64,000 bases of DNA from Lingula anatina (lineage: Eukaryota > Animalia > Brachiopoda): NCBI GenBank assembly GCA_051362555.1, contig CM120643.1:24308848-24372847 (forward strand), written 5' to 3'. The position numbers were made by a program, and so were the translations under genes. The notes under the pieces were generated by a model that saw only the letters and a list, made by a program, of their open reading frames with translations, searched no databases and was not told the DNA's origin. Positions within the stretch are counted from its first letter, which is position 1. Each line of letters opens with the position of its first letter. Positions 161 to 46,382 of the stretch are shown here, in pieces.

Positions 161-433
161 TCGTAAAAATACAACTTGCACTTTTACCTCTTGACACAGG
201 AATGTTATTTGCAAGTAAAAACAGGCCACCTGTTTTAAAAGTACGTGAAGACTTATGCGATTGATTAATGCACGAAACAAAAAAGGGGAAATTAGCATGC
301 GCGAAAGTTTTCGATTCTTGATTTGGTATCACCGCGAATGAGAAATAATACTTTTTAAGGATATAGATTACGGTATAAAATCGAACAGACTGCTTTGGAT
401 GTGTGTGTATGCGGTTGTGCCCACGCACATGCT

Positions 434-467
<34 letters not shown>

Positions 468-3215: not shown

Positions 3216-3251
<36 letters not shown>

Positions 3252-7458: not shown

Positions 7459-7733
7459 CAGGTCAGCATATGGCAATTCTCAATACTGGCAAGAACCATC
7501 AACAGCCTTGGTTCCACCTATCTAAAAATAGAGTACTTTACAGCATCTTATCATTACAAAGTTCACAGTTTGACACTCTTCATTTTATACTTTTGAGTAC
7601 GTGAACCAGAAATTAGATTTACTCATACCATATAAAACAAGCATTAAAAATTCTATATATGTTCCAGATCTATTACGTTCAGCCAACCAGTGCCAGCTTT
7701 AAACCTCCATCCTATAATTTGTCAACCTGGCAG

Positions 7734-16700: not shown

Positions 16701-17967
16701 ATTTTCAATAATCCATGACAGAAATTTGATTGAAGAAAACATTTCACAGAATTATCTTTCACTTATGCCCCCTTTTCCATGACCTGTTCCTGCACAGGTA
16801 ACCTTCAATAATCAAATCTGATTAAAAACTGTTCAAAGAATTGCCTTTCACTTACGGTCCCCTTTTCAATGACCCTGTTCAGCATAAGGACGGCCTTGGA
16901 GTTTTGTTCCCAGACCATCTGCCAGAAGTGACCTGAGGTGTTTGGGAGTGGACCCTGGAAGGTAATTAACACTTAGTCTAATGAAATATTTGTAATTCAG
17001 AGGCATGGCAATAATTCCATCTTTTCAATGAGGAAATCTGTGAATCTGATTTTTTTAAAGTCATAAATTCTTTAAGTAAGAACATTCCTGATGAGTGGTA
17101 GCAACAAAATTGAAAAGCAGCCCATCCTATATTTGTACTGTTAACTGTTAAAGTACCAAAATGAATGATTCACACACGACCATAACTTATTCATATATCT
17201 TTCATTTCAACAGACACTGGATTCCTGAAATCAATTCAAAGCATCACAATACATTCACCTATGACACAGGGGGAGAAGAGAACGACAAACCTGTGTCAGT
17301 ATATACCGCCTGTTTGCCTGAGGTGCCTCTACGAGGCTAGCGTTGATGTAGTCGTTGGTGCCCGATTTGAGAACAACTCGACTGTGATCATCTGGAAAAC
17401 AAGAACAGATTTCATCAGGCACAAGCCTAGGTTTAAAAAAAAACAGATTTTATTGCAGATTTTGATGAATCTCAGGAACCATCAGAATTTTTCCGTGGAA
17501 AAAGCACGTCTGATTCATAAGGTACACGCAATTATCTTAGTGTTACATTAGCAGCATTATTGTATCAAAATAAAACCGTCTTGAAAGAAAGACTTAATCT
17601 CTTGCTTTGATGAATGTGGTGTTGGGTTTATGGGCTCATTCCCACTGACGCTATCGCTCTGTCATCTAGTATGTAGATCTATCCAACTCCGCAGGGTCTC
17701 AAAGGGAATGCAATCAGATTAACACGCCTTTGTCTGGCATCGAGTTGAAAACAGAAAAGCTGGTGATTTTACAAATATGTTGGCGAAATGAGAGGAGGCG
17801 TGTGAGTCTGTTAATCTCAGCAAGAGTCCCTGCAGAGTTGGATCATGCTACGTAGATTGATAATTTTGTTGGGAATGAACCCCATGTTATGCTTCGCAAA
17901 TGGCCAGGTTAAGAGTCTGTGACACACACACACACACACAAAAAAAAAAAAATAAATAAATAAAAAA

Positions 17968-18010
<43 letters not shown>

Positions 18011-22844: not shown

Positions 22845-23260
22845 TTGGGGCTGTTGCTCTGAGCACTTTAATTCCACATTTGGGCGAGCTTTCACTCAAT
22901 CCTTCTCTCAAATATATCTGAATTTCCTGGCAGCCAGTTACTTGGAACGGAAGTAGAGTACGCATGGCAGGGTGTTTGGGCATTTCCAAGAAAGGCTTAA
23001 TTTCTTTGCGCACCAAACAGGAATTGTTTTTGCAAGTTTAATTAGCCTTTTTATCGCTTTCTAATTATGTTCATTAATGCACTCTTGACTTGCTTCTATT
23101 TTTGCAAGATGTGCTGTGATTCAGAGTGCTGCAATTATTATATAGGCCTATCTTGAAATGTAAGATATTTTAAACGTTGCCCCTGTACATCCGAGGATCT
23201 TCTTTATATCTAGCGATCTAGCGATGATGTAGAGCCCTGAGTTTACTGCAAAGAAGTTGT
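22845..23260. promoter_or_regulatory. Putative bidirectional promoter shared by the PTPN1/2 and ASB genes
   Basis: The two start codons are divergent and only 416 bp apart. Contains ETS/GABP-like CGGAAGT at 22948-22954 and GAS-like TTCCAAGAA at 22984-22992. Confidence 0.65.
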
Positions 23261-26200: not shown

Positions 26201-28021
26201 TTCTAGATCAATTTGCACATACTATAAATCTTTGTTAAGATTCATAAGTTGCCATCTCCAACCACTATAAGTCTCCAATCCATATATTAATTACCTCAGG
26301 TTTCAACGTTTTTCACAAGAAAGCATGGTTCTTGGGCAGATTTAGGCCGTCTTCTGGGTCTTCCGGAAGACAGTCAGAATTTCAAGTTTACATGGACAAG
26401 AATCTAATTTTTTTCGTCAGAAGACGGTCAAAAATGGAGGATAGATCAATAAAGATAATTTGGAAGCCTGTCAGAAAATATCTCTGGATCCCCCCCCCTG
26501 CGGTTATACCATTCATTTTGCTTTAATCTTAGTCCATCTGAAGACTTGTGTTAGTCTGATAAAAGAAATTTAGCCTCTGTACTTTTTAACAAATTATGGC
26601 ACTCATTATTTATTATCTGCTTTTTGTCTGTACATTTGACAGCTTTGCTGCCTTGTTAACAAGTTGTGGCACTCATTTCCAGGTGCAGATATAGATGCCA
26701 CTGCCTTGAAGGTCCAGATACCTGAGGAAGAAGGGGGCAGTATGCTTTTTATATACAGGTACAAGAAAACCATAATTCCTTCTGAAAAAAAAAAATAATT
26801 GAAGGGGAATCATTTGAGTCACATTGTGTTCAGCTGGCTTTTAATTCAAAGAGATTAAAAAAGAATGTGAGTGAAACTATATTTTCATACATGAATTGAA
26901 GTTGGCCATACTAGATCTTTTAATGCCATTGGGTAAGTTACCATAACAAAATTCAAAATTTGCTTAATAAGTGATGTAAATGGTAACACCTGTTTGGAGA
27001 CATTTTTATTCTATTTAATGAGAGAGTTATGTCCTGCGTATGTTAAGTTGAACATGGATTGGCAGGCATTAAATAATGTTTTAAGTAAGAACGGAACATA
27101 TTTGGGGAATTTGCTGCAAGTAAAACACATGACACTACTATAAAAAACTGGCATGTGCCAGTTGGCAAATACTTAGTCTAAATCTAACAGTACATGCGCA
27201 CTGCATGCATATACTTTGGTATGGAAAATAGAACTGTACAATCAGTCCCGTAGCTAGGGGTGGTTCGGGGGGTTCGAAAGAACCACCCCTTTTGCTGGGT
27301 AAAATTTGATCTAGGTACATGAAGTTTTTATGGGAAAAGGTCCACTTTTTCAAAAAAAAAAAAAAAAAAGAACCCCCCCCTTTTGAAATTGCTGGCTACA
27401 GGCCAGACAATCTATAATGTTCTTCACTTTGATGTATACAGGTCATGTCTGTACTGGGCCATAGATCGAGATCAAGCCAGTCTGGTCAAGATGCTTATCC
27501 AGTATGGGGCAGACACCTCATTAATGGATGACCAAGGGAATCGGCCCATCCATCATTGCTGCTGGGAGTCTGTACAAATGGACTGCGCGTGGGAAGTGAT
27601 TAAAGGGGGTGGTCTCATTTCTACTAAAGAAAACACGGTTTTGAATGACAAAAGGGTGTCTAACCAGCCATCTCTGTTCAGGACTCTACTATGGCAGCTA
27701 CATGTTGAGCCCGATGCGCAGATGTTGGTGAAGATACTGCGGATGTTGGTAATTTGGGGGTACAGTGTCCACACTACAGAGGCCCATCAAATCGTATCTA
27801 CACTTCACTTAGCGGACATAACAATGGTTGAAGACCCTGAAAATTTCAAGTCATTTGTTCAGTGGTTTGAAGAAAAGGTAAAAAACCCACACACTCTGAA
27901 GCATTCATGTTGTTTGAGCATAAGAACTGCCCTCGGAAGTAAGAAATTGAGGGACAAAATCTACTCTCTGCCACTCCCACACCAGCTACAGATACATTTG
28001 TCAATGGAGGACTGCATTTAA
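23261..28021 (+). CDS. Ankyrin repeat and SOCS box (ASB-family) protein, ~347 aa, 5 coding exons
   Basis: Exons 23261-23353, 24505-24682, 25840-25956, 26683-26758, 27442-28021; GT-AG, in phase, 1044 nt. Ankyrin-like motifs: ETALCVAIR..LLLHSGADPN, SPLLLL..LLEAGADIDA, SCLYWAI..MLIQYGADTS..GNRPIH. C-terminal SOCS box: PHTLKHSCCLSIRTALG...IYSLPLPHQLQIHL. Confidence 0.9.
24724..25072 (+). mobile_element. Helentron/HINE-like non-autonomous element (degenerate copy)
   Basis: TTACCTTCGACAAGGAGGTT ... CTTGATGGAGGTCACACTCT..TGCTTTT; homologous to 25192-25435. Confidence 0.55.
25192..25435 (+). mobile_element. Helentron/HINE-like non-autonomous element
   Basis: Subterminal inverted repeat ACCTCCACCAAGG / CCTTGGTGGAGGT, (TGTY)n tract, 3' hairpin GCGCTCT..AGAGTGC and TTTTCTAGT end. 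Confidence 0.65.
26331..26500 (+). mobile_element. Second copy of the 167-bp MITE (5-bp TSD TGGTT/CGGTT)
   Basis: Shares TTTAGGCCGTCTTCTGGGTCTTCCGGAAGAC...AAAGATAATTTGGAAG..TGTCAGAAAATA.CTCTGGATC with 21610-21776. Confidence 0.85.
27243..27406. mobile_element. MITE with CAG..CCGTAGC termini and 5-bp TSD ACAAT
   Basis: CAGTCCCGTAGCTAGG ... CTGGCTACAGGCCAG; ACAAT at 27238-27242 and 27407-27411. Lies just upstream of the last ASB acceptor and explains the spurious N-terminus of track ORF 27383..28021. Confidence 0.75.
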
Positions 28022-29399
28022 CATTATTTAACGCGAGCTGAGAGTGCCAATGCGTTGTCTACACTGGATATTATAGTTGAAAAGATCTCGAGACACCTTA
28101 ACATTTACCAACTTTACTTATAAGAACGGGAGTTGATCATAAAGCACCATTTTGCATGTGTTGCATCGACTGCAAAACGAGCAAGAGTCAGTATTTTTGG
28201 TGTTCTTATTGTGGAAAAGTCACTCTGGTCAGGTTAATTGCTATACTCAGCACTCTGTATATGTACACATACCAGTATACTGTGTATAGGAAAAGGTATG
28301 GAAAAGTGAAATTAGGGAAAAATTTTAAAGGAACCTCAGTTGATTTTGAATGGTATATATGTTTTATTTATGCATGTACCTTCTGTGGTACTTTCAGTCT
28401 CTAGGTACTTTTAGAAGGCATGTTTTAAAATTTTATGATTTCATCTACTAAAATATATATCACATGGTGCTGAGATGAATGCAGACTAGACATGATTGAA
28501 GTGACACCTGGCAAACAAAATACAACAGTGACACCTGGTTGACGAAGCATGCTGGTGACACATGGTTAAATGTACACTAAGGCAGCACTTAATTGATATA
28601 TATATATAAAGGCAGTAAAATTGTGTCAAAGAAATATCGTCATTTACAGAGTTCTTGAGATGACAATTTCCATTGCTTTATGATGACCTACATTTTGTTA
28701 GAATGCTATTCTTTCTAATATACTCCTGGCAAGCATATTTTTAAATAAATAAAAATTATAAAAATTGATTTGCCTCAAATTGCCTGCCTGTTTAATATCT
28801 CGTTCTTTGGTCAAATGTTCAGCCTTTTAGTCTGTCTGCTGTATGTAACTGCCAAATCAATCTTATGATAAATAAGAATCTAAACACTCTTTATTGTGTA
28901 CATCTTGTCAATATATATAACGTACATCCTATCACTATTAAACAGTGATTATAATAAAACTCGGATGGATCAAGAAACTATTCACTCAGCCAGGATCAGC
29001 AAGCGCGTGGCCGTGCTCCAGAAATTGTGTTAGAGGTGACTGGGATTGCTACTGTAATCGAAGTTAGGGAATTTACTATAATTCTTTTTCTCAGGGAGCT
29101 ATGTTGTTTAAATTCAAGTCCATTGCATAACTGTATAACTTCTCAAATGGAGATTGTATTTTTTTTAGAGATTTCAAGATGTATTTTGGACCTATAATCT
29201 CCCCTAATCTCTATAGAGTGTTTTGTACTAGTATGCTATAAGTAAAATATATATACATATTAAATAAAATAAAAGAGCAAAAGACATGAAAAAAATTGTA
29301 TTTTTTTTTCTCCGTATCTTTTTTTCAAATTGATTTTACCTACTTTTTAATCGCATTTACTCAATGAGCTCTTTTTTTCTTAGTGTCATTTTTCAAAAG

Positions 29400-29890
29400 T
29401 TACGTCCATGGGTCCCCGTGCCTCCGTAAGCCTACGCGTGCTCAGGTGGTAACTGCACGTGACTTCGCCTGCAGAGCTTTGTTTACTCACGTGACAGGGG
29501 TCGTGACGGGGTCGGTTTGTCTAAATATAGTACACTTTATTTTAAATGACAGTGTTGATATTGAGTTATATATCTTCGTATTTCTTTAGATACCCGGCGC
29601 ATACATTAACCCTTCACGATTTTCAATCTTTTCCCTCCTTTTGATCATTTTTACAAATATGTGAATGAGATATGGCCTTTACTGGTAGGTTAAGCTGACC
29701 TGTCTAGTAGACTTCACGGATGTACAATTGACTTTTAGCACGTCAAATTGTCATAACATCATCTCCCTGTCAAAACACAATCATATACTAAGTGGTCATT
29801 TGACACAATCATCTAGTTTGCATTTTTTTTCCTACACATTGTAGAAGAGATGCTGCCGTTCGATCGACCGGCGAGTTACACGTGACCGCT
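29400..29890 (+). promoter_or_regulatory. CpG-rich putative promoter/first exon of the fusion gene, with E-box (CACGTGAC) cluster
   Basis: Local CpG enrichment. CACGTGAC at 29456-29463, 29488-29495 and 29879-29886; TGTTTAC at 29480-29486; splice donor G|GTAGGT after 29684. Confidence 0.55.
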
Positions 29891-32800
29891 GTTGACGGTC
29901 AGTGAGACGGCTTTTAAATAGGTCAGCTGCCTTGACCTAGATATCCCCCACGTCTCTGACAGCACATGTGTGGGTACGCCGTAATTCACATTTGTGTGGG
30001 ATAGCTGGCTATAATATATATATATCAGGTGAGTGGCATGACAATGAAACATAACAGCATGTGTTAAATGAAGAAGATAGAGCATTGTCAATATTTAAAA
30101 CGAACAGCAGGAGTGACAGAGAGGCATAAAGTAATTTTTAAAGATACCCGGTAAATGCATGAGGTACGCTGTAACGATTTTCCGCCCTAGCGATTGCCAT
30201 GGCTATATGCTGTGTATATGGCATTGGAACTACGAAATATACTGATCTGCAGGCAGTTTGCATGCATTATGTATGTTTCTAATTCATAATTAAAATTTTT
30301 AAATCTTTGTATTGACTAACCATGATTATTATATATTATTAATAATAATAATAATAATAATTATTATTATTATTATTCCAGAGGGGGTATGTTTTGCTCT
30401 TCTAGGCTGTGTGTCTGTGTATGTGGGAAATGAGCCCATTCTCATAGACACCACAAGGCTTAACACTAACTTTTTTTGATACTGGCCCAAGATATCAATC
30501 GGTAAATATGCAAGGATGATTTGACACATGACATTTTACTTGCTCTTTGGGCCAGTGACCTCAGTTATTCAATGGCCCTGGGTTGGTTTTCAGTGGCCCA
30601 GGACCAATGGGCCACCCTTAATGTCAAGCCCTGCACCATCAGTCTTTGTACTTAGATCAATCCAATTCTGCTGGGACTCTCGCTGAGTGCAATCAGCTTA
30701 ACTGAACTTCATGACTTAATTCTCTTGTTTCCAACATACTCAAATAATCACCAGCTTTTTTGTATTCTAACAATACTTAACACCAAGAGAAGGCATATTC
30801 TAATAAAGCTGTGAAACTGAGTCTCCATGGAGTTGGATTGATCTACGTAGACCGATATTGTCTATGGGAATGGGGCCTTATACATCAATCAGTTGCAATG
30901 CAGGGGCAGATCCAGAGATATTCTCTGACAGTCTTCCAAATTATTTTTATTGATCTATCCGCTATTTTTGACCGTCTTCCGGCAGAAAAAAATATATACC
31001 CGTCAATGAAAACTTTAAAATCTGACCGTCTCCCGGAAGACCCAGAAGTCGACGGTCTCGATCCTCCCCTGCAATGCACAGTTCTCATTTAAGACCTACA
31101 TATATAGACAGCTAGCACTAGAATGTAAGGCACCCATTATTATGATATTACGTCATGTGCCAGATATAGTGTCACGAGATGTCAGTCAGGTTGGTCAAAG
31201 CATGATAACAGTATCTTAACCTATGACCTGCATGTACTAGTACATGTATACCCCTCTATATATGTTTCATGCATTAGTATATGATATTGGTTGGTCCAAA
31301 AAATCGTCCATGCTGTTATTGGTCAATATTATGATTGGTGCTGACAGTATATCGGTATTGAGTCGTATCAGACTTACTATTCCTTGATATGAATATTAAT
31401 TTATCATCTGTGCAGATTACATAATTATTGAGATACATTATCAGTTGGCAAATGCCATTTTGTAGGCTTGAAATTAACCTGGTAAAAATAGGTTGGATTG
31501 AAGTCAGTTAGTCACATTTGCATGGTATAAATACTAGTACATTGAAATATGATATCTTACTTGAATTTTAAATACAATATTTCTTGTTATTTTTGTGAAT
31601 TCAGTGAAGTTTATAATAATTAAGCAGATATCTGGTAAAATCCAAGTGTCTTTCCTCGAGTTATCAAATTATCAATGTAAACACCCCCTACCTCTCCCCC
31701 CCCCCCCTCTCCCCCCGAGTTAGGAATTGTATCATGTTCTTTCAATAATAAGATTGTAAACCAAGATGAGTGGGCCATGCTCATATGTACTTTCAGGTAA
31801 AAACATAAGAAATATAATTATTCCAATGAAATGCTGTGGTAGAGTGGTTGCAGGGAAAATCAAAGGAATAGAAGCAAAGGCTTTGTCTAGAGTTTATTAG
31901 CTTATGGATGGATGTGTCCTATGAATAAGTTCTGAGGTCACTAGACCTAGGTTATTTTCCCCTGATCTGTTTAACATATATCCAGTTCCTAGTAAATGAT
32001 TATGATAGAAATAAATGGATTAGGAATAGTATAATACTGTTGGAGGAAGGAACGTCACAAATATATGAGACATGCTGATGATACAGATGTCATTGCAACA
32101 TATTGCAAGAGAAACTACAGACATTATTGAATAAAGTGGGAGGTGAAAACAGAAAATGGGCCTCACAAGAAAATGGAATGTATGGTTCTTGGTTTACAGA
32201 AAAAGCAGCACCTGCCTGGTCAGTGAAGTTAAAATAAAGGGCAACAGCATCAAGCAAGTCAAGGGCTTCAATTATATATAGTACCTAGTAGGAAGCAGGA
32301 TAACCATTGATGGCAGGTGTGGAGCAGACAGTCGGTGCCGTAAACTTAACAGCTTACTGGCCATTCAGGTCACCGGTTTCTTGAATCTACTGGTCCGAAT
32401 AAAAATTATCTGGTTCGAATGAAAAATTCCATCAGACCTGACATTTATCCCTATTACTTTAATACTAGTAGTAATAAGACATTAAATTTGTCAATTTTTT
32501 TTTTAATTTAGAAACATTAAAGATATACATTTCAGTAAAAATAAACTAATAGCATCTCAAAATTTTGTAGGGATTCTCCTAGACTTTGTCATCATTTTAA
32601 TTGTTGGATTCATGACCATGAGTTATTTTAATCCTAAAACAGTAAATGTGGAATAAGACTAAAATTTTAGTTGCCTGACTACAGAAATCAGTTGCGCCGG
32701 GACAAGTAACACAAGTACATACTGGTGAGTGTGACAAGCCATGCACTCAAACATATTTAACAGAAATTGTGGGAAAAGGTTAGTTTTTTAATGAAAACAA

Positions 32801-32902
32801 AATCTGGTGGCCATGTTGGACCACTAAATTCACAAGTTCTGAAGTCATCTGAAGAAAGGAAGTTGCTTAGTTTCATGATAGTCAGTGTCCTGCAAGGACA
32901 AG

Positions 32903-32958
<56 letters not shown>

Positions 32959-33910
32959 GTGGTTGAATGCATGAAAAAAAAAATTAAATAAATAAACTAT
33001 ATTTGACCAGTTCAACCTTTAACTTATATGTTAAAGTTAACATTATAAAAGATTTTAGGCATTTGTTGGACAGAATTTAATCTGTAATTGTACACATCAG
33101 CAAAAGAAACATTAATGTACATTTAACCTCATGCTTTGTCACACATCATAGAATGTTAACCTCCTAATGTGTACAATATTTATTATATATATCAATTTGT
33201 TCCACTTCCCTGGCTCAAAAATCATTCAGTAGTCATTGCTAAAATCAGGCATGCATATCAGTTGCTGTCACAAAAGATATAGAGAGGAATAGGTCTCTAC
33301 TTAGCCTAATAGATTTCAAAATACTAGTACTATTAGTATTATTAGTACTTGTGAATGTACCCATTGCTGTCACAGGTTGAGGAGAAGGCCAGGTAAAATT
33401 GATAAGTGGGTTAATGAGCTCTGGCTCTGTAAACAGGGTCGATAGACCAAATTCATTTATTTATTTATTTTTGAGTCTTATTTTAGATGGCCCAGAAATG
33501 TCGGGTCCATAATTTTGAGCATAAGAACAACATAATTAAGGCTGCTTTCACAACCAGTTGAACTGTAGACTACTGATAACTAGTCTGTGGATCAAATGTG
33601 GCACAGCTTATTTGAAAGCATTCAGAGATTCCCCCCTGCAGGGACTGCGTATGTGGGAAGTGGGAATTCCATTGTCAGGTGTGTGCCATATTTGATCCAC
33701 GAATTAATTAGTCCACGGAACAACTGGTTGTGAACATGGCCTAAAGCTTATTTAATGGTCTGTTTTAAACTTCTCCCATTTCCTCAGCTAATACCTGATG
33801 CAAGCTGTAGAAATGTGGTTCTGTTCATGAGAAGAATGTGAGGAATATCGTGGAATATATATAAATATCTCCCACTTCCTGAGCTAATATCCAATGTACT
33901 TTTGCCATTC

Positions 33911-33941
<31 letters not shown>

Positions 33942-36900
33942 AACCATTAACCAGTGTACATATTACATATCTGGCCTAAGAATAGCATTTTACTTAGTTC
34001 AACCAGTGCATGCCATTTGAAAAAGGTCATTGACATCACAATTTTATTGTGTTTTATTTTTGCTAAGATTGAATACAAACCAGTTTGTTTTGTAAAACAA
34101 ACCCATGGCAAGTACTAGTACCTCTAGATAAACTGAGGTGTGACATTTGGCTTCGATGACATTTTCATCGTCTTGAAGATATTGAAAGTTATAATATATA
34201 ATGTTAATTTATACAAATCCAGGTCTCTGTTCGTCCGCCCAGAAACAACCAGTTGCTTAATGGCCATTTGCAGTCAAACCTGGCTTCCCATCAGCCTCCT
34301 TGTCTCTGCAATACAGTTCCTGGAAAAACAACTTTTTGTATTGGTAAGTACCAGTATGCATATTGACATAGTTGTTCTTAGAACATTTATCTAGAACTCT
34401 TTGACAGCTAGGGCAAAATTTATTTCATGTTTCTATCTTTATTTTTTGCAGGATACTTTGCATGTATAACCTTTTTATTTTTTGGTAATATCTGTAATAT
34501 ATATATATGATACCAATTGCATTATTTTTTGTCAAATACAATTGTAACATTAAGATATATTCTTGTACTGGGTCACTCATCATTGGGCTGAATAATGTTA
34601 CTCAAGTGGTATATATTGTTAAAATTCATACTAGTTACAAAAGAAGATGTCAATTATTCAATGCAAATAGGAAAAGGGGGAATCAAAAATTCATTTTATT
34701 TTTTAAAGATACGCGTTCACAAAAGTTTTTTCAACTAATAATGTGTCCTTGGTTAAGAGCGATGATTTTGCAGTACTCATTACTATGAAGTACTAGTACT
34801 TGTGCTGTTATATAATACATTAATTTCTTGAATAAAATATGTACATGTATAATGCAAAAGTAGAATGCCTATAAAATTTCTGCCCAATTCATTGTCTCAT
34901 GGATGATATATTAGACCGTACAATGGAAAATTACAAGTTAAGTTCTGGCTCAAACCAAAATATTTGTACCCAGAGCAGAAACTGAAATTTGTGATTAAAA
35001 AAAAACAAAAAACTTCAAAACATAGCCCTGTGTATCATGTAATTGTTTCAGGTGAAGTGGTACGATATATATATCTACACTCCAATTGAACGTTTCACGT
35101 CCCCAGTGGTGTCGCGAATTCCTCGTTACATTACATTCGGAGAGCACCAATATGTGGTGTTTAGTGCCAACATAGTATCCTGGTTGAGAACTCTACTGGT
35201 AGTACCAATTGCTATTTATTTGAAGTAAGTACATGATGTATATTTAAAGTATTAATTAAAAATTTTTTTTATATAATTTATGTGCAGTTATGTTTATTTT
35301 TATGCATTTATTATTTTTTAATTTATGATTATTTGTTTATAAACATTAAGTTATTATTATTATTATTATTATTGGTGGTGGTGGTGTTATTGTTGTTGTA
35401 ATATTTATTAATTTTCTTTTTGACAATTCTGTTTGTTCTGTCAGATTTCTTTTGCCAGATTTATTTTAGTGGTTTTCATTGTCTCATTGTCATGTCTTGT
35501 AGTAGTTAACAATTTTAAACATCATCGCTATAAAGTGTGCTTCTTTCAGTTTGCCTTTGTTCGATAACAGTTAGCCCTTTTTTAAAGACCTAATTTTTAA
35601 CATTAAAACATTTTCACCACTGCCTGCCTAGTATCAATGACAGCTTGATGTTATTATATCACCAGCTGGGGATATTTATATAATTATAATATAAATATAT
35701 GATAATAATATAAATATTATGAGTACATGTTGTTTTAATTCCCTTTCCTGTTATGACAGCTAACTAAAGATTTAAAAATGAAATTGCTGAAGTAAAAAAG
35801 TAAGCAATTATTTTATTGATTAACCAAAATAAATTAGTGTTTGTAACTGGTAGTGATAACTTATTGTGTAAAGTATGTGATAACATGAACCTAGCATCCA
35901 CTTTTCTTTTACTTCATCTTGAGATGTGACCTTTTCTTCCATTTGAACTAATTTTATCGTATGTCTTAAATCTATTTAAACTTGCCTATTATTTTGTTTT
36001 TTTCTCATTTGTTCATTATTAAATTATCCTAAATGGCTATTTATTTTATTTTTCCTTGCTGTTGTTACGAAATCTTTTTCAGCTACATTATTTTGGTTGA
36101 CTTAATTTTCATGTTAAATAACAATTACTTGAAGAACCCAGATTTTCTTTCACTTCTGATTTTAGGTGTGGTCATTTTTCAACATGCTTCTGGCTGGTCA
36201 TTTTGCATGACTATCTTGACCATGTGGATGGTATAGTAGCCAGGGTTCAGCGAGAGCACTATGGTCCTGTTGACGACCCAATTTTGGGTGGTTTCATGGA
36301 TGCATTCTGTGATAAGGTACTGTAGCAGAGGCATCTCTTTTTGCTCTAATAATATGTGTATCATAAACTCAAGAGTTTCTGAACAATTATAAATTAAATA
36401 TAAAATATTTTGTGCGCCATCCTCTAGTGTGTCAGTGTTTTCAAAGCAGGTTAATCTCTGAAATTAAGTTACATTGTGTTTTAATGTACCATTATAAGTT
36501 ACTGTACATTGTCATTTTGTGTTTGCTGGAATACTTTCAAATTGCTTTCTGCCTGGGAATGCATTTCTTTTTATCAAATCCTCAAATTTATTCATTGTTC
36601 AATCCAGCCATGAAAAGTCAAAATTATCACGTTTAATTCATGTCGCAAGCTTTGATTCTTTATCACACAAACTTCAACTATTACTGTATTATATCATCAC
36701 CTTATTTAAGGTGTTTCATGTTTTACTGACATCAGTGCCAAAGGAAAACATGTTATTCATAATTAAGTACAGTAACTGATACAGAAATAAATAGTATCAG
36801 AAATAAAATTGTTTTACTCATGATGACATCTAATAATTGCATTATGAAAGATAATTCATAGTATTGCAATTGCAAAGCACAATTTTCAGCTGTTAAACAT

Positions 36901-39900
36901 TGAATGGCAGCTGGTAAAGAGATGGGCACAGTTTAAACCTTGATAAATTAACAATTAAGTGATTAAATGATGATTACGAACAAAGAATGAATAAATGATA
37001 TTTGACAGCATTGTTTAATATAATGTAATTACAGAAGTGTTTTCTGTTTGATGCTGCAAATATTTCAGGATTGCCCAAAACATGGCATATGACCAAGGAT
37101 GGAAATTCAAACTTCACCTCAGTCCAAAAGTTGCAGTCACATTTAGGTAGTCAGGCAGTCGCAGTCATGCTATGCCACTGGATATCTGAGATGTGATAGT
37201 CACTTTTATTACATGTGGTGAATTAATCACTCTTTCTTTGTTTTCTTTTACATGTAGTCTATATGCCAAGCTCATATATATTGCCTGCATGTTCGGTACA
37301 ATTTAGGATAATTATGGCAAATTTGATGATGTTTTACTGAAAAAATATTCATTGTTTAGATCTATAATTTTTTGACATCCTGATGAAGGTTTTGTCTAGT
37401 TTTTACCAAGACTTGCTCCCAACTGTCAGTGATTTTTGCTGATTACTAACAAGGTCAACAATGTCTACATGAAAAGTAGAAATCATCAAAAGGAGTGAAA
37501 GTACTTTCTCAGCAGTGAATATTTTCATCTGTATAACTAGCTACAGAACCAGTGAAATTATTTTCTCATATGTTGATGAAACAGAGCAAACTTTTGAAGA
37601 TTAAAAATTGCATACAATCATGTTATTACCCCAGTCACCATTTGTCAGAAGGCGCGTTTACTCCATGCCGTACTTGAACTGGTAATAGTCCAAGTGATGT
37701 CTCCAGAAAAGACTATTGGTTAATAAAGAATTTGCATTTAGATTTCTAGGACTTGGAAGTGGTTCTCAAATATGATCATTTGTTGGGACGCCAGTTTGAC
37801 CAAGTGCTATTTAAGTTGGACCTTGTCTGAACACACAGTCAGAAGGAAACTTGACTGGATTGTCTTTGATTTTTGGAATTGTTATATATTTTCTCTCTGT
37901 ATATAAACATAACGTTTTTTCATGCAGATATTTTCCAAAGTAATATAATAACAATTAGATTGTTTGCAATGATAAATGTTATGAGAAAAAATACTGTAAG
38001 GATTTCTGAATTGCTTTTAAACCTTTTGCAGTTACTCTTCAACAGTGTTCTTTTTAATTCTACAATAACTGAAAAAGGATTAATGAACATCCTAGTAAAA
38101 GGATATATATGCACACATCATGTTATCGCAAAACATGTTTGCGACAAATGTACACACAAATCCTGCCCAAAAATAGTTGTTGAATTTTGGAGTTATTACA
38201 TGGCTGAAAGGATGTTCACTTTGTCTCTGCCATTGCAAATTATGGAGAGAGCCTCTGAAACAAACTTTAAAAGGAATTAAAGGCAAGATATATTAATGAA
38301 AACGTAATAGCTCGTGCATACTTTGATATAGTACATTATTTTGGTTAAAACTTATAATCATGTTAGCACAGAACAAAACAAGATCATACATTTAGAACAA
38401 ATTATTACTGCAGTATGGCAGATTAAGAAACAGATGATGTTCATGTAACAGTATACTCTAGTGACTACTCATACCAGCTAAAACCATGTTCATTTCTCCT
38501 GTCATAGTTAATTTATAGTGATTAGTATATTTCTGTGTCTGGACATCAATCTTCTCCTCATATTGTGTAATTCAAGGGTCCAAATTCTTAGGTCTGTTCA
38601 ATAATAATTGTTCTGATGATCAAAATTGGAACTATGGCAGTCTTTTTTTTTTCTTTTTTTTTTTTTGTACATGCTAGCTGCATGGAAGCAAAATGGTTTC
38701 TATAGTTCTTGATAATGTAAGTGGCATTTATTAATACATTACATGTAGGTATTTGGGGTAGGTGTAAGAGAAAGGAGTGTAGAGGAAGGGCAAGTAATTT
38801 ACCAATTTAAAAGGTTTAAACTGTGAGTATAATTGATTATAATGGACTGCTGCTCCAGTTTAAGACAAACACTGCCCTATGTTATATAATTTGATGGAGT
38901 ACCTGCCTTCCTGAAGGAAATTTCCTTCACACAAAGATGATTTAATGACGTTCCAGTATAGATTTTCGTTGTCTAAATTAATTGACTTAATTGCCATGTA
39001 TAAGTGATGTTTGCAGTCACGTACTTAATTTGTTGTTTGTTCAAAATACATTTATTACATTAAAATATAAATTGGTCATAATGAAATTGTTGTACTCGTA
39101 ATTAATGTATGCAGTAATACACACCTGTATATTTCTACCAGTAGATTGTGGCTATATATATTCATGTACATAGTATATTATACTACCAGTAGTATGTCCC
39201 AAAATGCTACCCTGATACACAATGAATCATCAGTTGAAAAAAACATACCTGTACCTATTTGAAGTTCTTGTTACATATCTGGATTTTTCCAGCACCATAC
39301 ATATATGTGCAGTTACGTTTCAGGTAAATGAGCTTTAAAAAGAAAACTGAATTTCACACCCATGATTCTCTGAAAATTTGCAAGTTAAATGAAATTAAGG
39401 TTATTGACACATTAAAAATTGGGCTTCTGTAAGCAGTATGTTTTGCTTTGTGTTAATTTATATACATGTAAATGCAATACCACTATATGCAAAGATTACA
39501 TAATATTATACAGTACATACTAGTATTACAATATACCAGGTTTGTAACCTTTTTATAATTATGATACTTTGATTAATCAAAATGAGAAACAGAGAACAGA
39601 CCAAACCTGTTTTCAAGGCAATGTTGGATAAACTAAAAAAAAAAAAAATTAAAAAATATTATTTGAGGGGACAGATGGTGACTTTGGTAAATATTCTATA
39701 AAAGTTGACAATATGTTTTACAAAGTTAATAGCATGCACACTTGTATACATGTTTTGCCCATAATAAAGCATTATAATATTATATGACTTTTGGCTGGGC
39801 TGTCGCAGCTTTTCAATAATCTGCTAAATTTAATTTAATTACAAGTATGTGATTACCTAATTTTACTAATTTACTTATGTTCTTATGAAATAACTTCAGT

Positions 39901-42900
39901 TAAAATAAATAAATGAAGTATATGCCAGAGGTACTCCATACTACTACTTTGTGATTATTTTAATGAAGATTTTTTCACTTTCAGATTGTCAATGTATTTG
40001 CACTGTGGACTATCCTACTGGTGTCGGACTTCAGCCTGCTGACCCCTGCCCAGTGTTGGGTTCTTTTCTTGTCCTGTGCAGTCATCATAGTCTATGAATT
40101 CACACTAGGTGTAGTCAGAGTTCAGGACTACTTCCATGCCCACTATGCCAGGTAAATGATGTTCATTATACCTAACCTCTGAACTCACCGTGACCTACGC
40201 TCCATACTTGTAGAGTCTGTTCACAATGCATGAATATAGTCGGGGCACTTTTCACATCAGGGACAGCTCCGTGTGAAAAAGGTTCACTATACCAAGGTTT
40301 CACTATTCTGAAAAATCTTTCTGTAAAATCAGTTGTTCACTATGACGAAAGTGTGCTATGGTTCGCTATGACGAGGGTTGGCTATTCCGAAAAATAAGAT
40401 TGCCATAGCTGCTCTTCACCAACTGCATTATTTCATATAATATATATCATATAATCATATAATCATGATGAGCACCGACCTTGTTAGGAGTAACATTTTT
40501 TTAAAATTCTCTTTTTGTATGTTTAACATATTACTTAATTTACCAATATGTGGGACAATTATAAATTATTTTACATTAAAAATAAAGTACACTGTATTTT
40601 CTTCAAAGTCTTTGCGCTCTATATATAGGTGTGTTTCGGATTCAACCTTCATAATAGCAGACCTTCATCGTAGCAAACCTTAATCGTAGTGGACCTTCAG
40701 CATAACGAACCTTCCTCATAGCGGAAGTTACGCGCAGCGAACCTGCTTGGAAGTGATTCATGCAGTTGTTATGCACATGTACATCATCAGCTAAATTAGC
40801 TAAATTTACACTCACTGATGTATTTTTGATGTGACAGCATAATCTCACAACATGACTGTTTATTTCCACATAATCAGAGTTCTGGTGTCAAATGCCTTTA
40901 AATTCAGATATTAATGTTACATGCTCAGGTATACAATATCTCACTATTAGAGTTGCCCTTATCATACTAAGTGTAGTTACCAGTTGCCTGAATCATCCTA
41001 TCAAATGTTAATTCACAAATATATTATATTATATTATATCTCTTTTATCCTTGCTGCTGTAAAATGTAGGTTGAACAAAAAATTCAAGAAGCAGCAGCCA
41101 TTTGCCACTGCGGCAGTAATGGAGGGCAAACTAAAGGAGAAGCTCGAATCCCTCGGCATCGCTTTTCTGGCTCTGGCGCAGGGAGCACATGGTGTACTGA
41201 ACTGTTGGTGTAAGCTGGATTCTGTTATTATCATCAGATATATTTGATGTGGAATAAACTACCGTGCGTTATCATTTACTTGTACTTTGAAAAAATGAAT
41301 AAGCTACAGTGACTTTTAATTGATTGAAATTCGATGTTTGTTTTATGTTTTAATTAACTAAAGCCTTACACGAGCAAATTGTGAATATTACTTTACAGTG
41401 TTCCCTACTGGGCTGCTATTAAATACATATAGTCAATTTGGCTCATTGGTTGCAAAGTTGTAAAAACTGTGTGTGGCAAAACACAAAATATTCATCAGTA
41501 GTGTTTTGGAATGTAGGTGTAAGACAGAGGGGAAAATGGCAGTACTATAATGCTCATAATAGCTTGTGATAGCTAGAGAGCCCTGATACTAATAAATTTG
41601 AAAAAAAAACACGAAAATTCAAAATGTCTGCAACATTAATTCTCTTTGAGATAATCTTTTGGCCCATTCAGAACAAGCTGATCCACAGCTTAACAGACCC
41701 TTGGATCAAATATGGCTGACCCACTTAAAAGCTTGCTGCATAATCCCCTAATAGACACCGAATAGATTCTGCAACCTTGATGTGGGTTGGTCATATTTGA
41801 TCCGCGGATCTGTTAGTCCAAGGATCAACTTTGGTTGTTAATGCTGCCTACTATGCCTACTTAAAAAAACAGTTATTTTCTCCATGCAGCTGGAGTTGCC
41901 GGAGTGGTCTGCCTCGTACTTAGCATTCGTCTGGCACATGCCAGTTTGAGCAGAAAGTTAGAGGCTCGTACAAAAGAAACCAAAGGGAACAAGTCACACC
42001 ATAAAATTAATGCCAGTTTAGCTGCCATTGATCTTCATGAGAAAGAGGGATGCTCCCACCGACCCCTGTATAACGATGATGGATCTAAGAAAGTTTATCA
42101 CAGAAAGGTGAGGGTGATAATTGATAGTATTTTTGCAACTCATTTTATGATTGATTTATTGTGATATGAACACATTCTGTTTTTCTGTAATGGAAAAAAA
42201 ACACAATTTGAAGCCAAGCTGTCTTTGTTTTTTAAATTTTGCATATTATAAATCACATAAATATTTCTCACCCATTTTAAGTATAATTTTTAAAGAAGAG
42301 ACACAATTTATCAATATTTTGGCAATGTTCTGTAATAGAAGCATTAAACCAATTCATTAAAAAAATCCATTATCGTAAAATATATTTTTTTAACAGATCC
42401 GATTCTCTCAGTGAAATGTTTGAAATTTCCATTTTAGAAACGTCCAGACGGAAAGCACAAAAAGATTGAGGAAAATGAAGATGTTTTCAGAGGTAAAGAT
42501 CAGGAAGGGGCCACAGAAAACTTCTCACATCTACCTTACAGCCCAGGCAATACAGGGGTGTCCACCTTTGAGTCAGAAACAGACACTGAGACTGACACAA
42601 GGAGGTCCAGAAGGTGGAATAAAGGAACCAAAATGGAGGACCAAAGGTCAGTCAGCGCACAAGTTAAACCAGAGGATTTCATTAATGATGAGTCAGGTGA
42701 GAAACAATGAGTCAGGTGAGAAATGGAGTGAAATCTAAAGGTATAGTGAAGTCATTTTAGTGAATATATACATATGACTGTTTTAATGGAATGATACTCT
42801 GTCATGTTCAAACTTCTGAATCACCTTTGTGATTAAAAAAGAAAAAACTACACTTTTCTGATGCTTATTAATTTAAACGCAGAATTAGCAAAATATTAAA

Positions 42901-45900
42901 AACACTGTAACAGTTGTTAAAATGTACGTTGTAAATGGACATTAATGTTAAAGTCCAGATTTATCAAACGGGGAATCAAAATTATCTAAAATTAATTCAT
43001 TCTTTTTTTTTTTTTTCAATTTTATCACTATGTATAATAAGTTTTTATCTTTAATATTCTCAGGCAATTCCACCACAAGTAATGACTCAGCATTTGTTAA
43101 AGATGAGAAGGAATCTGATAAGTCAAGTGGAAGTGGGAGCAGTGGAAAGAAAGGGTTCGTTTATTTATATTGATGTGTTATGTTCATTATTTTGCTTTGC
43201 TGAACACATGGTAACATAATACTGTATATTTGTCAGTTTTACCATCTCCATAATGTGGTTGGGAGGGAATTGAGATTTTAATTTTTTTTTTATTGTTCAC
43301 TTTCATAATAATTTAGGAAGTTAGTGAAATTGGGGTGTCTATTTGTCTGTCTGTATTCCATCTGTTAGAAAACATTTGGCTGTCTTCTCCAATACTATTC
43401 TGTTCAACAAACCTTTCCATTCATGAAAGTTTAAACGTGTAGTAGTGTAACAGAATAATTTATTTCCCAATTGTGCAAATACTTCAGTATTATGTTATCC
43501 AAAGTCTGAGATGAAAATACCTTTTCAAGTACAGGTAAATACATCTTTTTACAACAGACACTTTGTTGGGAACATAATTATAATATTGATTTATTCATTT
43601 GAATAGAAAAAAAATCATTTAAACAAGGCAGCCTGAAATTAAATGTATAACTATCATTTGATGCAAGACAAATTACTTAATATAATATTAAGTAATTATA
43701 ACCTTAAGGTTGAGTATCATAAAATGATGTCCTTGATAAAACTACCGTCTGTATTTTCCTTCAGTTGTAGCAATGCTGAGGGAGAGACATGATCATTTTC
43801 GGTGATTGTTCAAGTCATTTTTGTTTTATGTTGCTGTGTTACGCATCTACACAAAAGCTGCAAATTGTTTAAATAAGTCAGAATGATACATGTAGATTGA
43901 TACTATTTCTTTTTTCAACTCGAAGATTAGATATAATTAATATAAAATGCTTTTTTGATAGGGTGTCTGCCTCTTCTCTTAGACTTATGTATTTTTGAAA
44001 AAAAAAATGGTTAAAAAAGTGTTACTTTGTGCCTGATGGGCTGTTGTAGATGCTATTGAGTAGATTCATTTTTTTTAATTGATCTCATCTTGAACTAGTG
44101 TCCTCTGTTGTTCAATACTTGCAGTTACATGTACCATGGTATAAAAGTAAGGCTCAGATGTGCTCATCAGTGCAAACTCCATAGGTATATTTATCATATA
44201 TGCAAGCATATGCATCTTTCACCAAATCCAATTTAGCAATGTGTTATTGAAATATTAGAAAAATGAAAATGGTTAAAAATTTTCATCAATTAAGTCAATG
44301 ATTTGGCAATGCATTGATGGAAATAACACCTCAATGAATATAGAGATTTCTCTTGTTAGCATACTAGTAAAGTTGACATAGACAAAATTGAGAAATTTTG
44401 ATGAAAATCAAAATAATTTGATCCTTTCTAGAAATAATTGCTTTATGAATTTAAAAGCAAGCACTGCATGCATACAGGGAAATAATTTCTTTCCCACCTA
44501 TAAATATCTGAATTAGATTCAGTGGCTCACAGAAGTCAGTTTCCTTCTCCAACCATTGGCTCAGACATTAAAACATTTACCTTAATCATGGTTGTTAATA
44601 CAGATCATCATAGAAGGCCCAGGGGCTGGCAAATTTAATTTGTGTTTGTAATCAAGCAAGATTTGGAGAGCGAGATCAAAAAAGTGGCAAACAGACTAGT
44701 AACTGAGAGTTGGCAAATTAACATGTATGAGTTGACAGTATTTATCCACAAATATTTTCCTGGTCATTTTTCTCTTGATTTACAGTCTATAAATTGCACA
44801 AAAGTTCAGCCTTGCCTTGTTTTGCCTATTACTTAATTTGTATTGCTTTGAAGTTTTTAGTCAACATTTCCAGAGCATGCATAGAATTTTACCCTATCCT
44901 TGGAAATTTTACCCACATCACAGGGATATGCCATTCTCTGGAATGAACTGCCACTGCACGTGTGATCAGCTACTGTTTTAAATAATGTTGACATTTTTAA
45001 ATCAAATCTAATTTTTTTTAAACAATATTATAATGATTATCAATTTTTTAGACTTTCATTATTCATTGGACTTGTTTAATCTTTGATTTCTGCAACGACT
45101 AAAGAATTTTTATACATTTTAATAATAATCTAAGTTTGGGTCTTCATCAACACAAGTCATTTTTCCTTATAACTGATATTTCCAGATAGAATGCTATTAT
45201 ATAGTTGTACAAGCACTGAGAAAAGTATAATATGGAAAGTGGTTTGAAAGAACTTATAATTATATTTCTTCCACTTCAGAAAATACTCAACAGGGTCTGA
45301 CACGGAGGAGGATGAGAAGGCCCTCTACCGCATCCGGCGTCGCTCCCTGCCAAACATAGACATAGATGGCAGGGTGGACAAGGTGTACTCCATTGGTTGT
45401 TTTGATCTGTTCCATAGGGGGCATGTGGCAATACTGCAGAAGATGAGAAATATGGGTAAACAGGTGAGGCCCTATATGGTAAATGACTGGGTCTTTTCCG
45501 TGGAAAAATTGTTAATTTAACAGCTACTTTAATTAGCAATTTTTTCAGGTCAGAAATTTTTATAATTAGAACTTTTCTAGTTAAATTAGTGGTAGTAACA
45601 AAACTGAAAAGCAGCTAGGTTACCCAATAGTTAATTCAATACAGGTAAAGCACCGATAATGTACTTACTAATTAAAATTCAAAATTAAGGACACTAAAAA
45701 CAAGTAATGTCAATATATATTTTTACTAGGTTATAGTTGGTGTTCATGACAGCCGCAGCTACTATAAACTGAAGAACAAAGTCCCCATTGACCCAATAGA
45801 AAAGCGCATGCTGAACGTAAAGCAGTATGCAGATGTGGTATGAGAAAGAAATTCAGTGCTCTCTAATTGCTGTGTTACATGTAGTCCTGACAAGTGTTTT

Positions 45901-46382
45901 ATGGTACATTGTACAAGCAACTGTGCAATCTCTTTGAAGTTCTTTTAATACAGATAATTGTTGTTTTTATGTAAGATATTATATACCACATGCGCGTAAT
46001 TTACATCATTTCATTAAAGTAACCAAAATGTTTCAGCACTGATTAATTGGTGTTCTTTTCCAGAATTAATCCTTAAAAAAAAAAAAAAGATTTCAACATT
46101 TTTTGTTAAAGTCGCAAATACACATTTCAGGTCTACTGCATCACCAGCACAGATCCATCCAACTTCATCTCATGTATTGTGCACCTGTGTGAGGGGGAGA
46201 CTGCCCTCTACATCCGCGGGGATGACATGCAAAACTTCCCGTCTCGCCACGTGGTTGAGGCCCTGATGCCAATACGCTTCCTGCCCTATACGCAAGGCGT
46301 GAGCAGTACCAAGATCCGTAAAGAACTGTTTGCCAGGATCAGGAGAGATAGCAACGAGTGGCTGAGTGACGGAGCAGTCTGA
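29665..46382 (+). CDS. Bifunctional CDP-alcohol phosphotransferase + HxGH cytidylyltransferase fusion protein, ~608-627 aa
   Basis: Exons: (29665-29684 tentative, MRYGLYW), 34223-34343 (in-frame ATG also at 34260), 35052-35224, 36166-36316, 39985-40151, 41070-41209, 41890-42107, 42438-42696, 43064-43154, 45280-45463, 45730-45837, 46131-46382. All introns GT-AG; one continuous frame. N-terminal domain: SANIVSWLR (PgsA-type 'PNxLTxxR'), DHVDGIVAR..GGFMDAFCDK (DxxDGxxAR..GxxxDxxxD), MEGKLKEKLE (GKxK) and several hydrophobic helices. C-terminal domain: KVYSIGCFDLFHRGH, VIVGVHD, IRGDD, LPYTQGVSSTKIR. Confidence 0.9.
30901..31071 (-). mobile_element. Third, inverted copy of the 167-bp MITE (5-bp TSD CAATG)
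   Basis: Reverse complement of 21610-21776; CAATG at 30896-30900 and 31072-31076. Confidence 0.85.
32042..32322 (+). mobile_element. Degenerate RTE-type LINE reverse-transcriptase fragment
   Basis: Frameshifted remnants read GGRNVTNI..HADDT, KLQTLLNKV, KMECMV, IKGNSIKQVKGFNY..GSRITIDGRC, matching the YADD through FxYLGS region of RTE-type RTs. Confidence 0.7.
32906..32956. repeat. (AG)n microsatellite
   Basis: Read directly. Similar tracts: 435-465 (AG), ~17950-18020 (TAAA), ~19198-19242 (AAT). Confidence 0.95.
33540..33741. mobile_element. Harbinger-like palindromic MITE, TAA TSD (related copy ~41660-41849)
   Basis: TAA-GGCTGCTTTCACAACCAGTTG ... CAACTGGTTGTGAACATGGCC-TAA; internal IR GTGGATCAAATGTGGCACA / TGTGCCATATTTGATCCAC. 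Confidence 0.7.
40262..40735. mobile_element. Non-autonomous DNA element with short subterminal tandem repeats in inverted orientation
   Basis: Left end has ~15-16-bp units GGTTC(A/G)CTAT..(G)AA; right end has the reverse-complement units TTC..(A/G)TAGC(G/A)AACC. Confidence 0.5.
41660..41849. mobile_element. Palindromic MITE related to 33540-33741
   Basis: GGATCAAATATGGCTGACCCAC mirrored by GTGGGTTGGTCATATTTGATCC. Confidence 0.6.

Follow-up and report, generated by a model that had tools for sequence, protein, structure and literature searches.

The described systems closest to the gene reported here are the IPCT/DIPPS protein of Archaeoglobus fulgidus (PDB 4MND) and AF2299 (PDB 4O6M), each of which combines, on a single chain, a six-helix CDP-alcohol phosphotransferase with a domain of the nucleotidyltransferase type. 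The IPCT domain of the former does not have the HxGH fold. In animals, the well-studied CDP-alcohol chemistry consists of the Kennedy pathway, phosphatidylinositol synthesis and cardiolipin synthesis, all encoded, as far as is known, on separate genes. Here I describe a gene of the brachiopod Lingula anatina, located in a 64,000-nucleotide stretch of contig CM120643.1 (hereafter the window), in which a CDP-alcohol phosphotransferase and a cytidylyltransferase (CT) are fused. The fusion in one gene is well supported by the genomic sequence, and the residues of both active sites are intact. The protein belongs to a conserved and apparently uncharacterised enzyme family, a variant on known chemistry.

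The Lingula protein resembles IPCT/DIPPS and AF2299 in the polar positions of its second transmembrane (TM) helix and in its probably soluble CDP-alcohol donor, and the fold match to DIPPS reaches Z 11.6 over 190 residues. It differs from IPCT/DIPPS in domain order, which is opposite (the DIPPS part spans residues 296–489 of 4MND), in belonging to another transferase clade, and in its PgsA-like acceptor site. The transferase scores under 20 bits with the IPCT/DIPPS model NF041135 (cut-off 580); a search with this model did not list P0001, the RefSeq protein of L. anatina LOC106155363, and relatives score 16–25 bits. The Kennedy enzymes PCYT2, PCYT1 and CHPT1/CEPT1 belong to the same two superfamilies and follow the same order of CDP activation and then transfer, but they are separate proteins; PCYT2 possesses two CT domains and forms its own clade, and CHPT1 matches the Lingula membrane domain at only Z 9.0. 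CEPT1 has an additional TM7–10 (PMC10156783), whereas the structural model of the Lingula protein predicts six helices, followed by disorder from residue 288. An earlier note on this DNA, made from the letters alone, had held that the architecture matches none of the related enzymes that it listed, and no characterised enzyme of this architecture was found in PDB sequence searches or in the literature searched. No description of the fusion was found in that literature, and annotation tables of genome papers may list the gene. Public databases name family members "uncharacterized protein" or "cytidyltransferase-like", or label them automatically as "PCYT2" or "hlde".

The gene model comprises 12 exons with GT-AG ends, giving a single open reading frame (ORF) of 627 amino acids with no stop before the terminal one. 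Exon 12, used as a query, matches P0001 at 100%, and a model starting at ATG 34260 and including a 60-nucleotide cassette exon (628 amino acids) mismatches P0001 at 9 of 628 positions. The phase-consistent exons and single ORF proposed in the earlier note are thus borne out, near-identical to the RefSeq model from ATG 34260 onwards. The extent it proposed, 29665..46382, holds from ATG 34260 in exon 2 on, where P0001 matches, but its first exon is without independent support. The features of the gene are as follows, in window coordinates.

29665 to 29684, plus strand: candidate first coding exon of 20 nucleotides, which would continue in phase into exon 2; P0001, P0105 and P0106 all lack it
34223 to 34343, plus strand: exon 2; ATG 34260 is the P0001 start, and the predicted juxtamembrane helix begins here
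35052 to 35224, plus strand: exon 3; juxtamembrane helix and TM1 (SANIVSWLR), with both flanking introns common to the rotifer-type locus L128
36166 to 36316, plus strand: exon 4; TM2–TM3, His100-Asp101, signature residues D104, D107, G108, A111, R112, G127, D131 and D135, and K136
39985 to 40151, plus strand: exon 5; TM3–TM4, with invariant E174 and R181
41070 to 41209, plus strand: exon 6; TM5, with invariant K212, K214 and K216; its 3' intron is common to L128
41890 to 42107, plus strand: exon 7; TM6 (A254, S257, K261) and the beginning of the linker
42438 to 42696, plus strand: exon 8; predicted disordered linker
43064 to 43154, plus strand: exon 9; predicted disordered linker
44125 to 44184, plus strand: 60-nucleotide linker cassette exon, in P0001 and not in P0105 or P0106, and not listed in the earlier note
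45280 to 45463, plus strand: exon 10; end of the linker and start of the CT domain, with HxGH residues H493/H496
45730 to 45837, plus strand: exon 11; VGVHD, and K524/K526, aligned with K44/K46 of TagD
46131 to 46382, plus strand: exon 12; RGDD..FP, PYTQGVSST and the stop codon

The three Lingula gene models (P0001, P0105 and P0106) have three different N-termini, none of which uses 29665–29684; an alternative donor at 30028, with an upstream in-frame stop, would yield the P0001 start. All of the motifs quoted previously were located on the plus strand, between 35163 and 46284: SANIVSWLR (35163), DHVDG (36218), GGFMDAFCD (36287), GKLK (41125), GCFDLFH (45395), VGVHD (45736), RGDD (46215) and PYTQGVSS (46284). 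The profile check called for at that stage, when applied to the assembled protein, placed both domains above their cut-offs, PF01066 at residues 67–229 (28.4 bits, cut-off 22) and PF01467 at residues 486–609 (44.9 bits, cut-off 21), with one CT domain only. Pfam scans of single exons had missed PF01066. Skipping exon 8, exon 9 or both loses the frame, with a provisional shorter exon 8 used for this calculation. RefSeq holds two Lingula loci, LOC106155363 and LOC106151504, in one 90% cluster, which may be haplotypes or duplicates.

A homologue search, in which 7996 candidates were scored, yielded 92 homologues. These bear directly on whether two neighbouring genes were wrongly merged by the gene model. 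The Lingula junctions rest on genomic sequence, and seven AATAAA/ATTAAA hexamers lie between 42107 and 45280, in AT-rich sequence. Against such a merger, 66 of the 92 homologues carry both PF01066 and PF01467, and the domain order of Lingula is kept in 63 of the 92, query counted. Five mollusc-like proteins of 488–526 amino acids (P0022, P0037, P0038, P0039 and P0048) contain both domains on contigs of only 1.6–4.0 kb, and in L117 and L135 both lie in a single uninterrupted ORF. In the rotifer-type locus L128, the whole protein is encoded within 1.9 kb and its halves are joined across an intron of ∼46 nucleotides. A merging artefact is therefore extremely improbable. Three introns of L128 coincide in position and phase with those of Lingula, and a fourth is close by, which indicates vertical descent within Spiralia.

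The CDP-alcohol phosphotransferase signature, D1xxD2G1xxAR...G2xxxD3xxxD4, is complete in Lingula, at all eight positions. An AlphaFold2 model of the protein has a juxtamembrane helix (residues 8–50), six membrane helices (67–287), a disordered linker (288–476) and a Rossmann-like domain (480–612), with pLDDT mostly ∼90 over residues 11–270 and below 50 over 288–476. The predicted architecture is therefore a six-helix core with a juxtamembrane helix, followed by a disordered tether of ∼190 residues. The best folds for the membrane domain are those of phosphatidylinositol-phosphate (PIP) synthase (PIPS; PDB 5D92, 6H5A; Z 13.9) and Staphylococcus aureus PgsA (PDB 7DRJ/7DRK; Z 13.3). These enzymes differ from the Lingula family in using the lipid donor CDP-diacylglycerol (CDP-DAG) and in lacking a CT domain, and their identity to it is 12–20%. 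A search with the PgsA model TIGR00560 (cut-off 109.1) did not list P0001 at E 0.01, and the best relatives score 22–45 bits.

The nature of the donor can be approached through TM2. In CDP-DAG enzymes, JM1, TM2 and TM5 form a hydrophobic groove, whose place is taken in AF2299 and DIPPS by a pocket that is small and polar (PMC4634129). In PDB-based alignments, the residues at positions −4/−3 before the first Asp of the signature are His,Ser in AF2299, Ser,Ser in A. fulgidus DIPPS and Tyr,Gln in CHPT1, all soluble-donor enzymes, as compared to Ala,Ser in S. aureus PgsA (SaPgsA), Phe,Val in MtPIPS and Ser,Ile in MjPssA, which use CDP-DAG. The Lingula family has His-Asp at these positions. The position following the first Asp is F58 in SaPgsA, adjoining the acyl chains (PMC8640168); His takes the place of F58/M69 in 34 of 35 family rows, the other having a gap. 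H100, D101 and H105 are thus polar, judging from the sequence, where PgsA and PIPS form their groove, and these residues argue against a CDP-DAG groove.

I collected 169 proteins with the transferase profile, 110 with a CT and 59 transferase-only or fragmentary. The TM2 motif is readable in 97 of the 110 CT-fused proteins, the remaining 13 being fragments or degenerate; it is His-Asp in 95 of these 97, and all 97 have Asp at −3. The 59 others comprise 39 with His-Asp, 8 unreadable, and 12 with small or hydrophobic residues, of which 10 form a bacterial-type group with Phe after the first Asp and 2 are unrelated weak matches. The switch to polar TM2 residues tracks CT association. Because CT-fused members carry the polar His-Asp motif, the donor is probably soluble.

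Two quick trees of the transferase, without bootstrap, were computed. The transferase clade is separate from PgsA, AIPS-like, DIPPS-like and PssA references. In the second tree, from which six long or divergent rows were removed (P0214, P0129, P0205, P0202, L095 and L097), the His-Asp proteins group as a single clade (SH-aLRT 99), with the bacterial group outside. The phosphotransferase, PgsA/PIPS-like and with six predicted helices, constitutes a clade of its own, and its active-site residues are intact. In both trees, the Lingula transferase pairs with that of Branchiostoma (P0019; SH-aLRT 98) and not with other spiralians; paralogy, transfer or artefact are possible.

In the CT domain, H493 and H496 are invariant (35 of 35 rows), K524 is Lys in all 35 rows and position 526 is Arg or Lys in all 35. 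These align with TagD K44/K46, which presumably bind phosphate. The CT resembles TagD (PDB 1COZ, 2B7L) in its HxGH fold, in the equivalents of these lysines, in the GDD motif and in the C-terminal T-x-G-[IV]-S; the top Foldseek match is glycerol-3-phosphate cytidylyltransferase (GCT) of Bacillus subtilis, and the second structural neighbour is a cluster of 73 CT-LicD proteins in the Atlas, most of them viral. Fold scores are Z 14.2 for GCT, 14.2 for the Fom1 cytidylyltransferase (CyTase), 13.7 for HldC, 12.5 for CCT and 12.0 for ECT. The Lingula-family CT differs from TagD in being tethered to a membrane enzyme and in its phylogeny: it scores 39.8 bits with TIGR01518 (TagD/GCT, cut-off 165.4), and the CT tree recovers it in a clade of 45 rows (99/95), outside PCYT2, TagD-like proteins and HldE, the last falling on a long branch. 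This clade is characterized by an invariant Arg ahead of GDD, a Phe-Pro motif, and a Tyr replacing the Arg of RTEG. On P0001, only the general cyt_tran_rel domain model of NCBIfam is passed, and no equivalog cut-off. The earlier likening of this domain to TagD and PCYT is therefore right as to the HxGH cytidylyltransferase class, but the domain falls outside both the PCYT2 and the TagD clades.

Genomic contexts of the CT clade provide a second line of evidence on its product. A LicD-family gene lies within two genes of the CT in 9 of 18 distinct non-eukaryotic-looking loci (viral, phage-like or prokaryotic), and of 47 proteins scanned, 4 are CT–LicD fusions. Since the substrates of LicD enzymes are soluble CDP-alcohols, this association supports a soluble CDP-alcohol product. 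The loci with CT beside LicD include giant-virus-like and phage-like contigs (L001, L133, L137, L170, L185, L191, L193, L194 and L197); three phage-like ones among them also have a similar neighbour of 541–549 amino acids, which in L191 was identified as a GT2 glycosyltransferase. An SPX domain accompanies the CT in 43 of the 95 loci holding the clade. Such SPX-CT fusions (P0094, P0095, P0177, P0178, and 43 loci among L111–L190) are very common in eukaryote-like metagenome contigs, and no description of them was found in the literature searched.

The frequent occurrence of this CT with LicD and without the membrane domain, or with SPX, would also fit an arrangement in which the two domains are uncoupled, the membrane part being a CDP-DAG enzyme akin to PgsA or cardiolipin synthase, or a mere anchor, while the CT feeds glycan modifiers of the LicD/fukutin type. 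In six proteins (P0090, P0138, P0143, P0150, P0063 and P0061) the membrane domain is indeed degenerate while the CT is intact. However, the two domains are joined in at least three arrangements: transferase followed by CT as in Lingula, clade CT followed by transferase, and TagD-like CT followed by transferase. The polar switch in TM2 goes with CT association, and the Lingula protein has all eight signature positions. Uncoupled domains are therefore very unlikely, and the two steps are very probably coupled through a soluble donor.

For the identity of the donor alcohol, the reverse-order fusions are informative. In L112, a CT of the clade precedes a His-Asp transferase in one fusion. In five others (two from the alveolate Amoebophrya, one from the pelagophyte Aureococcus and two more) the CT groups with canonical TagD-like proteins (97/91), and three such fusions score 102–110 bits with TIGR01518 (cut-off 165). 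His-Asp is kept in all 19 reverse-order fusions. This TagD-like partner, K524/K526 and the top Foldseek match to GCT point to glycerol, as does the glycerol-3-phosphate dehydrogenase gene lying two genes from the CT in L113. AF2299, which binds CDP-glycerol (PMC4634129), has in common with the family the His at TM2 position −4. The case for glycerol as the donor alcohol appears to me evenly balanced.

The acceptor site resembles that of PgsA. In the sequence alignment, K136, R181, K212 and K214 are the equivalents of K83, R118, K135 and K137 in SaPgsA, where three of the four contact the phosphate of glycerol-3-phosphate (PMC8640168); E111 of SaPgsA is also kept, and K216 and K261 are additionally invariant. 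The preservation of most of this cationic pocket suggests an anionic acceptor. The six-helix architecture has moreover been tied to soluble acceptors (PMC4634129). A soluble anionic acceptor would thus have an even chance of being correct.

Taken together, the best explanation, offered tentatively and with somewhat less than an even chance, is that the protein may make CDP-glycerol and pass it to a soluble phosphorylated polyol, anionic as is glycerol-3-phosphate. The CT would first join CTP to a small phospho-alcohol, most likely glycerol-3-phosphate, yielding a soluble CDP-alcohol. The membrane domain would then move the headgroup of this CDP-alcohol to the hydroxyl of an anionic acceptor, most likely a second glycerol-3-phosphate or an inositol phosphate, with release of CMP. 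This would yield a phosphorylated phosphodiester, similar in type to diglycerol phosphate or glycerophosphoinositol, and a separate phosphatase would finish the pathway. No such phosphodiester pathway was found described for animals in the literature searched. Archaeoglobus makes diglycerol phosphate in a comparable way, from CDP-glycerol and glycerol-3-phosphate. Diglycerol phosphate has been described as a solute of the hyperthermophilic archaeon A. fulgidus (PMC1224877).

A number of observations weigh against this explanation. Gene structure, domains, catalytic motifs, taxonomic range, residue patterns and gene contexts are observed, and from them I infer the reaction and metabolite of the fusion protein. 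The tree of the transferase with all rows does not resolve the bacterial group as sister. Because the animal CTs form a clade apart from TagD (99/95), the glycerol assignment is drawn from the reverse-order relatives, and K526 is not kept in many viral CT members. The fold scores of the CT are tied between GCT, the Fom1 CyTase and, closely, HldC; the highest NCBIfam score is that with the model of HldE/RfaE domain II adenylyltransferase (TIGR02199, 49.8 bits, cut-off 181.5), and among PDB profiles human PCYT2 matches best. At the acceptor site, K83, R118 and K137 of the PgsA residues contacting the acceptor phosphate are kept, but R110 is not (Tyr in 27 of 35) and an equivalent of Y181 is not evident, as far as an alignment of sequences goes. 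Glycerophosphoglycerol was not linked to these animals in the literature searched. Finally, serine or ethanolamine is suggested by some CT contexts. Two related archaeal-type genomes encode a fusion of the CT to phosphatidylserine (PS) decarboxylase, and PssA adjoins in one of them (Helarchaeota, L082). In L113, the CT is accompanied by a PS synthase. The PS decarboxylase loci are:

L082, 7977 to 10160: CT–PS decarboxylase locus
L081, 1742 to 3028: CT–PS decarboxylase locus
L083, 7974 to 8765: CT–PS decarboxylase locus

The L081 CT is 65% identical to the archaeal one and the L081 genome itself came up in a scan of the Asgard phylum, so the assignment of L081 to Deferrimicrobium may be wrong. 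L113 holds a compact lipid cluster (424–3638) of PAP2 phosphatase, glycerol-3-phosphate dehydrogenase, base-exchange PS synthase and CT, with the dehydrogenase two genes from the CT. Given the decarboxylase and PssA locus, and since genomes G001 and G002 gave no full match to CdsA, I considered whether the CT might be a novel phosphatidate cytidylyltransferase; this was rejected, since the LicD partners and polar TM2 residues point to a soluble product.

These contexts bring in an amino-alcohol lipid, in which the CT would make CDP-ethanolamine or CMP-2-aminoethylphosphonate, and the membrane domain would transfer the headgroup to ceramide or diacylglycerol (DAG), giving ceramide phosphoethanolamine (CPE), ceramide aminoethylphosphonate (CAEP) or a glycerophosphonolipid. 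Mussels are reported to contain CAEP, N-methyl-CAEP, CPE and trace diacyl phosphonolipids (PMC8708635), and molluscs dominate the named family matches. An amine could be paired with the invariant Asp101, the role that Glu65 has in CEPT1 (PMC10156783). The PCYT2 profile match and the tied fold of the Fom1 CyTase (PDB 5X3D), which shares PF01467 with the Lingula CT and represents phosphonate activation of the PntC type, also fit; HxGH phosphonate cytidylyltransferases are documented, and PF01467 domains are often fused to phosphoenolpyruvate (PEP) mutase (PMC6697681). However, the CT is only 23% identical to the Fom1 CyTase and does not group with PCYT2, and no PEP-mutase motif was found in the 95 loci holding the CT clade, a weak test given that most loci are short. 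The phosphonate-alcohol that the earlier note had listed among possible substrates thus finds no positive support. A strongly cationic PgsA-type acceptor site would be unexpected for neutral ceramide or DAG, in alveolates the partner of this membrane-domain clade is a TagD-like CT, and cnidarians, which are rich in CAEP (PMC8708635), are not among the named matches from the candidates scored. An amino-alcohol product is the foremost alternative to the best explanation, if somewhat unlikely.

The acceptor could also be a lipid while the donor is as proposed above. CDP-glycerol or a similar donor would then serve a lipid, whether anionic, such as phosphatidylglycerol (PG) or a ceramide phosphodiester, or else DAG or ceramide, and an extended or unusual glycerophospho-lipid would result without CDP-DAG. 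The evidence for the donor is the same, and the cationic pocket equally suits an anionic lipid. In CEPT1, TM7–10 are involved in dimerisation and the lipid acceptor site lies within TM1–6 (PMC10156783), so six helices are compatible with a lipid acceptor, which also weighs against a soluble one. The long predicted juxtamembrane helix (residues 8–50) and membrane location would fit lipid handling. A precedent for a soluble CDP donor used on a lipid comes from Caulobacter, in which CpgD makes CDP-glycerate, which CpgA is proposed to add to ceramide phosphoglycerate (PMC12275187). Such a lipid does not, however, appear in the mollusc lipidomics consulted (PMC8708635), in which PG is minor, and the link of six-helix enzymes to soluble acceptors noted above speaks against it. 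I consider a glycerophospho-lipid product quite unlikely.

The family extends across several animal phyla. Named homologues are from bivalves, gastropods, a chiton, bdelloid and monogonont rotifers, a nemertean, Branchiostoma and Sycon, with molluscs most numerous; no vertebrate, arthropod, nematode, annelid, echinoderm or cnidarian was found among the named matches from the 7996 candidates. Outside animals, the family was identified in Thecamonas, Nutomonas, Amoebophrya, Aureococcus and virus-like contigs, with a stand-alone clade in Patescibacteria, while Chromosphaera and Balamuthia have the transferase part only. A further search with longer proteins and a mixed alignment gave nine matches, of which only Aureococcus and another Amoebophrya were new. 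The family is therefore not restricted to animals. With P0089 as a query, the membrane domain was not found in viral contigs or plasmids. Scanning Patescibacteria identified a stand-alone transferase in 2 of 401 genomes, and in the Asgard phylum 2 of 301 genomes scanned scored high for the CT clade, with 7 weaker generic CTs besides. The two Patescibacteria relatives (L259:1462–2109 and L260:1399–2142) lie directly before dnaB and keep lipid-donor-type TM2 residues; no pathway context was found around them. Thecamonas, Nutomonas-like proteins and some animal paralogues (P0090, P0138, P0143, P0150, P0136, P0063 and P0061) have a degenerate transferase motif and an intact CT, and in P0136 an intact-looking and a degenerate transferase stand in tandem ahead of the CT.

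An evolutionary extension of the favoured explanation would be a one-gene pathway of early eukaryotes, from CTP and glycerol-3-phosphate to diglycerol phosphate or a related phosphodiester, inherited by molluscs, rotifers, brachiopods, amphioxus and calcareous sponges. It would have arisen when a PgsA-like lipid enzyme turned to a soluble donor through the His-Asp change in TM2. As a whole this scenario is unlikely; if true, the SPX-fused CT versions of other eukaryotes would link the chemistry to phosphate status.

With this family, several invertebrate phyla gain an enzyme that combines activation and transfer in itself, and it implies a phosphodiester metabolite or lipid without an assigned enzyme. 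If the acceptor is a soluble phosphorylated polyol, animals would contain an archaeal-type phosphodiester solute; if the product is an amino-alcohol lipid, the protein would be a candidate for CAEP/CPE synthesis in molluscs. As both steps are on one chain, expression of a single gene should reveal the product. The His-Asp switch also provides a testable rule for CDP-alcohol phosphotransferases going from lipid to soluble donors.

Upstream of the gene, a cluster of E-box-like motifs was identified:

29456, 29488 and 29879 (span 29456 to 29886), plus strand: three CACGTGAC E-box-like motifs, the only matches in the window

The three matches, as opposed to 0.29 expected, fall within 430 bp, and none of 100 shuffles reaches three. 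They likely mark the promoter region of the fusion gene, as judged from this clustering, and the motif resembles sites for factors of the USF/TFE/SREBP type. The upstream neighbours are a protein-tyrosine phosphatase gene (∼7700–23000, minus strand) and an ankyrin/SOCS-box gene (24454–28040, plus strand). Directly downstream lies a PIG-N-like gene, from 49434 to beyond 61666 on the plus strand, with a PigN match of 24.5 bits (cut-off 25.4). An intronless RING/NHL (TRIM-like) frame of 661 codons (53794–55776, plus strand) is apparently nested in the latter, on the same strand.

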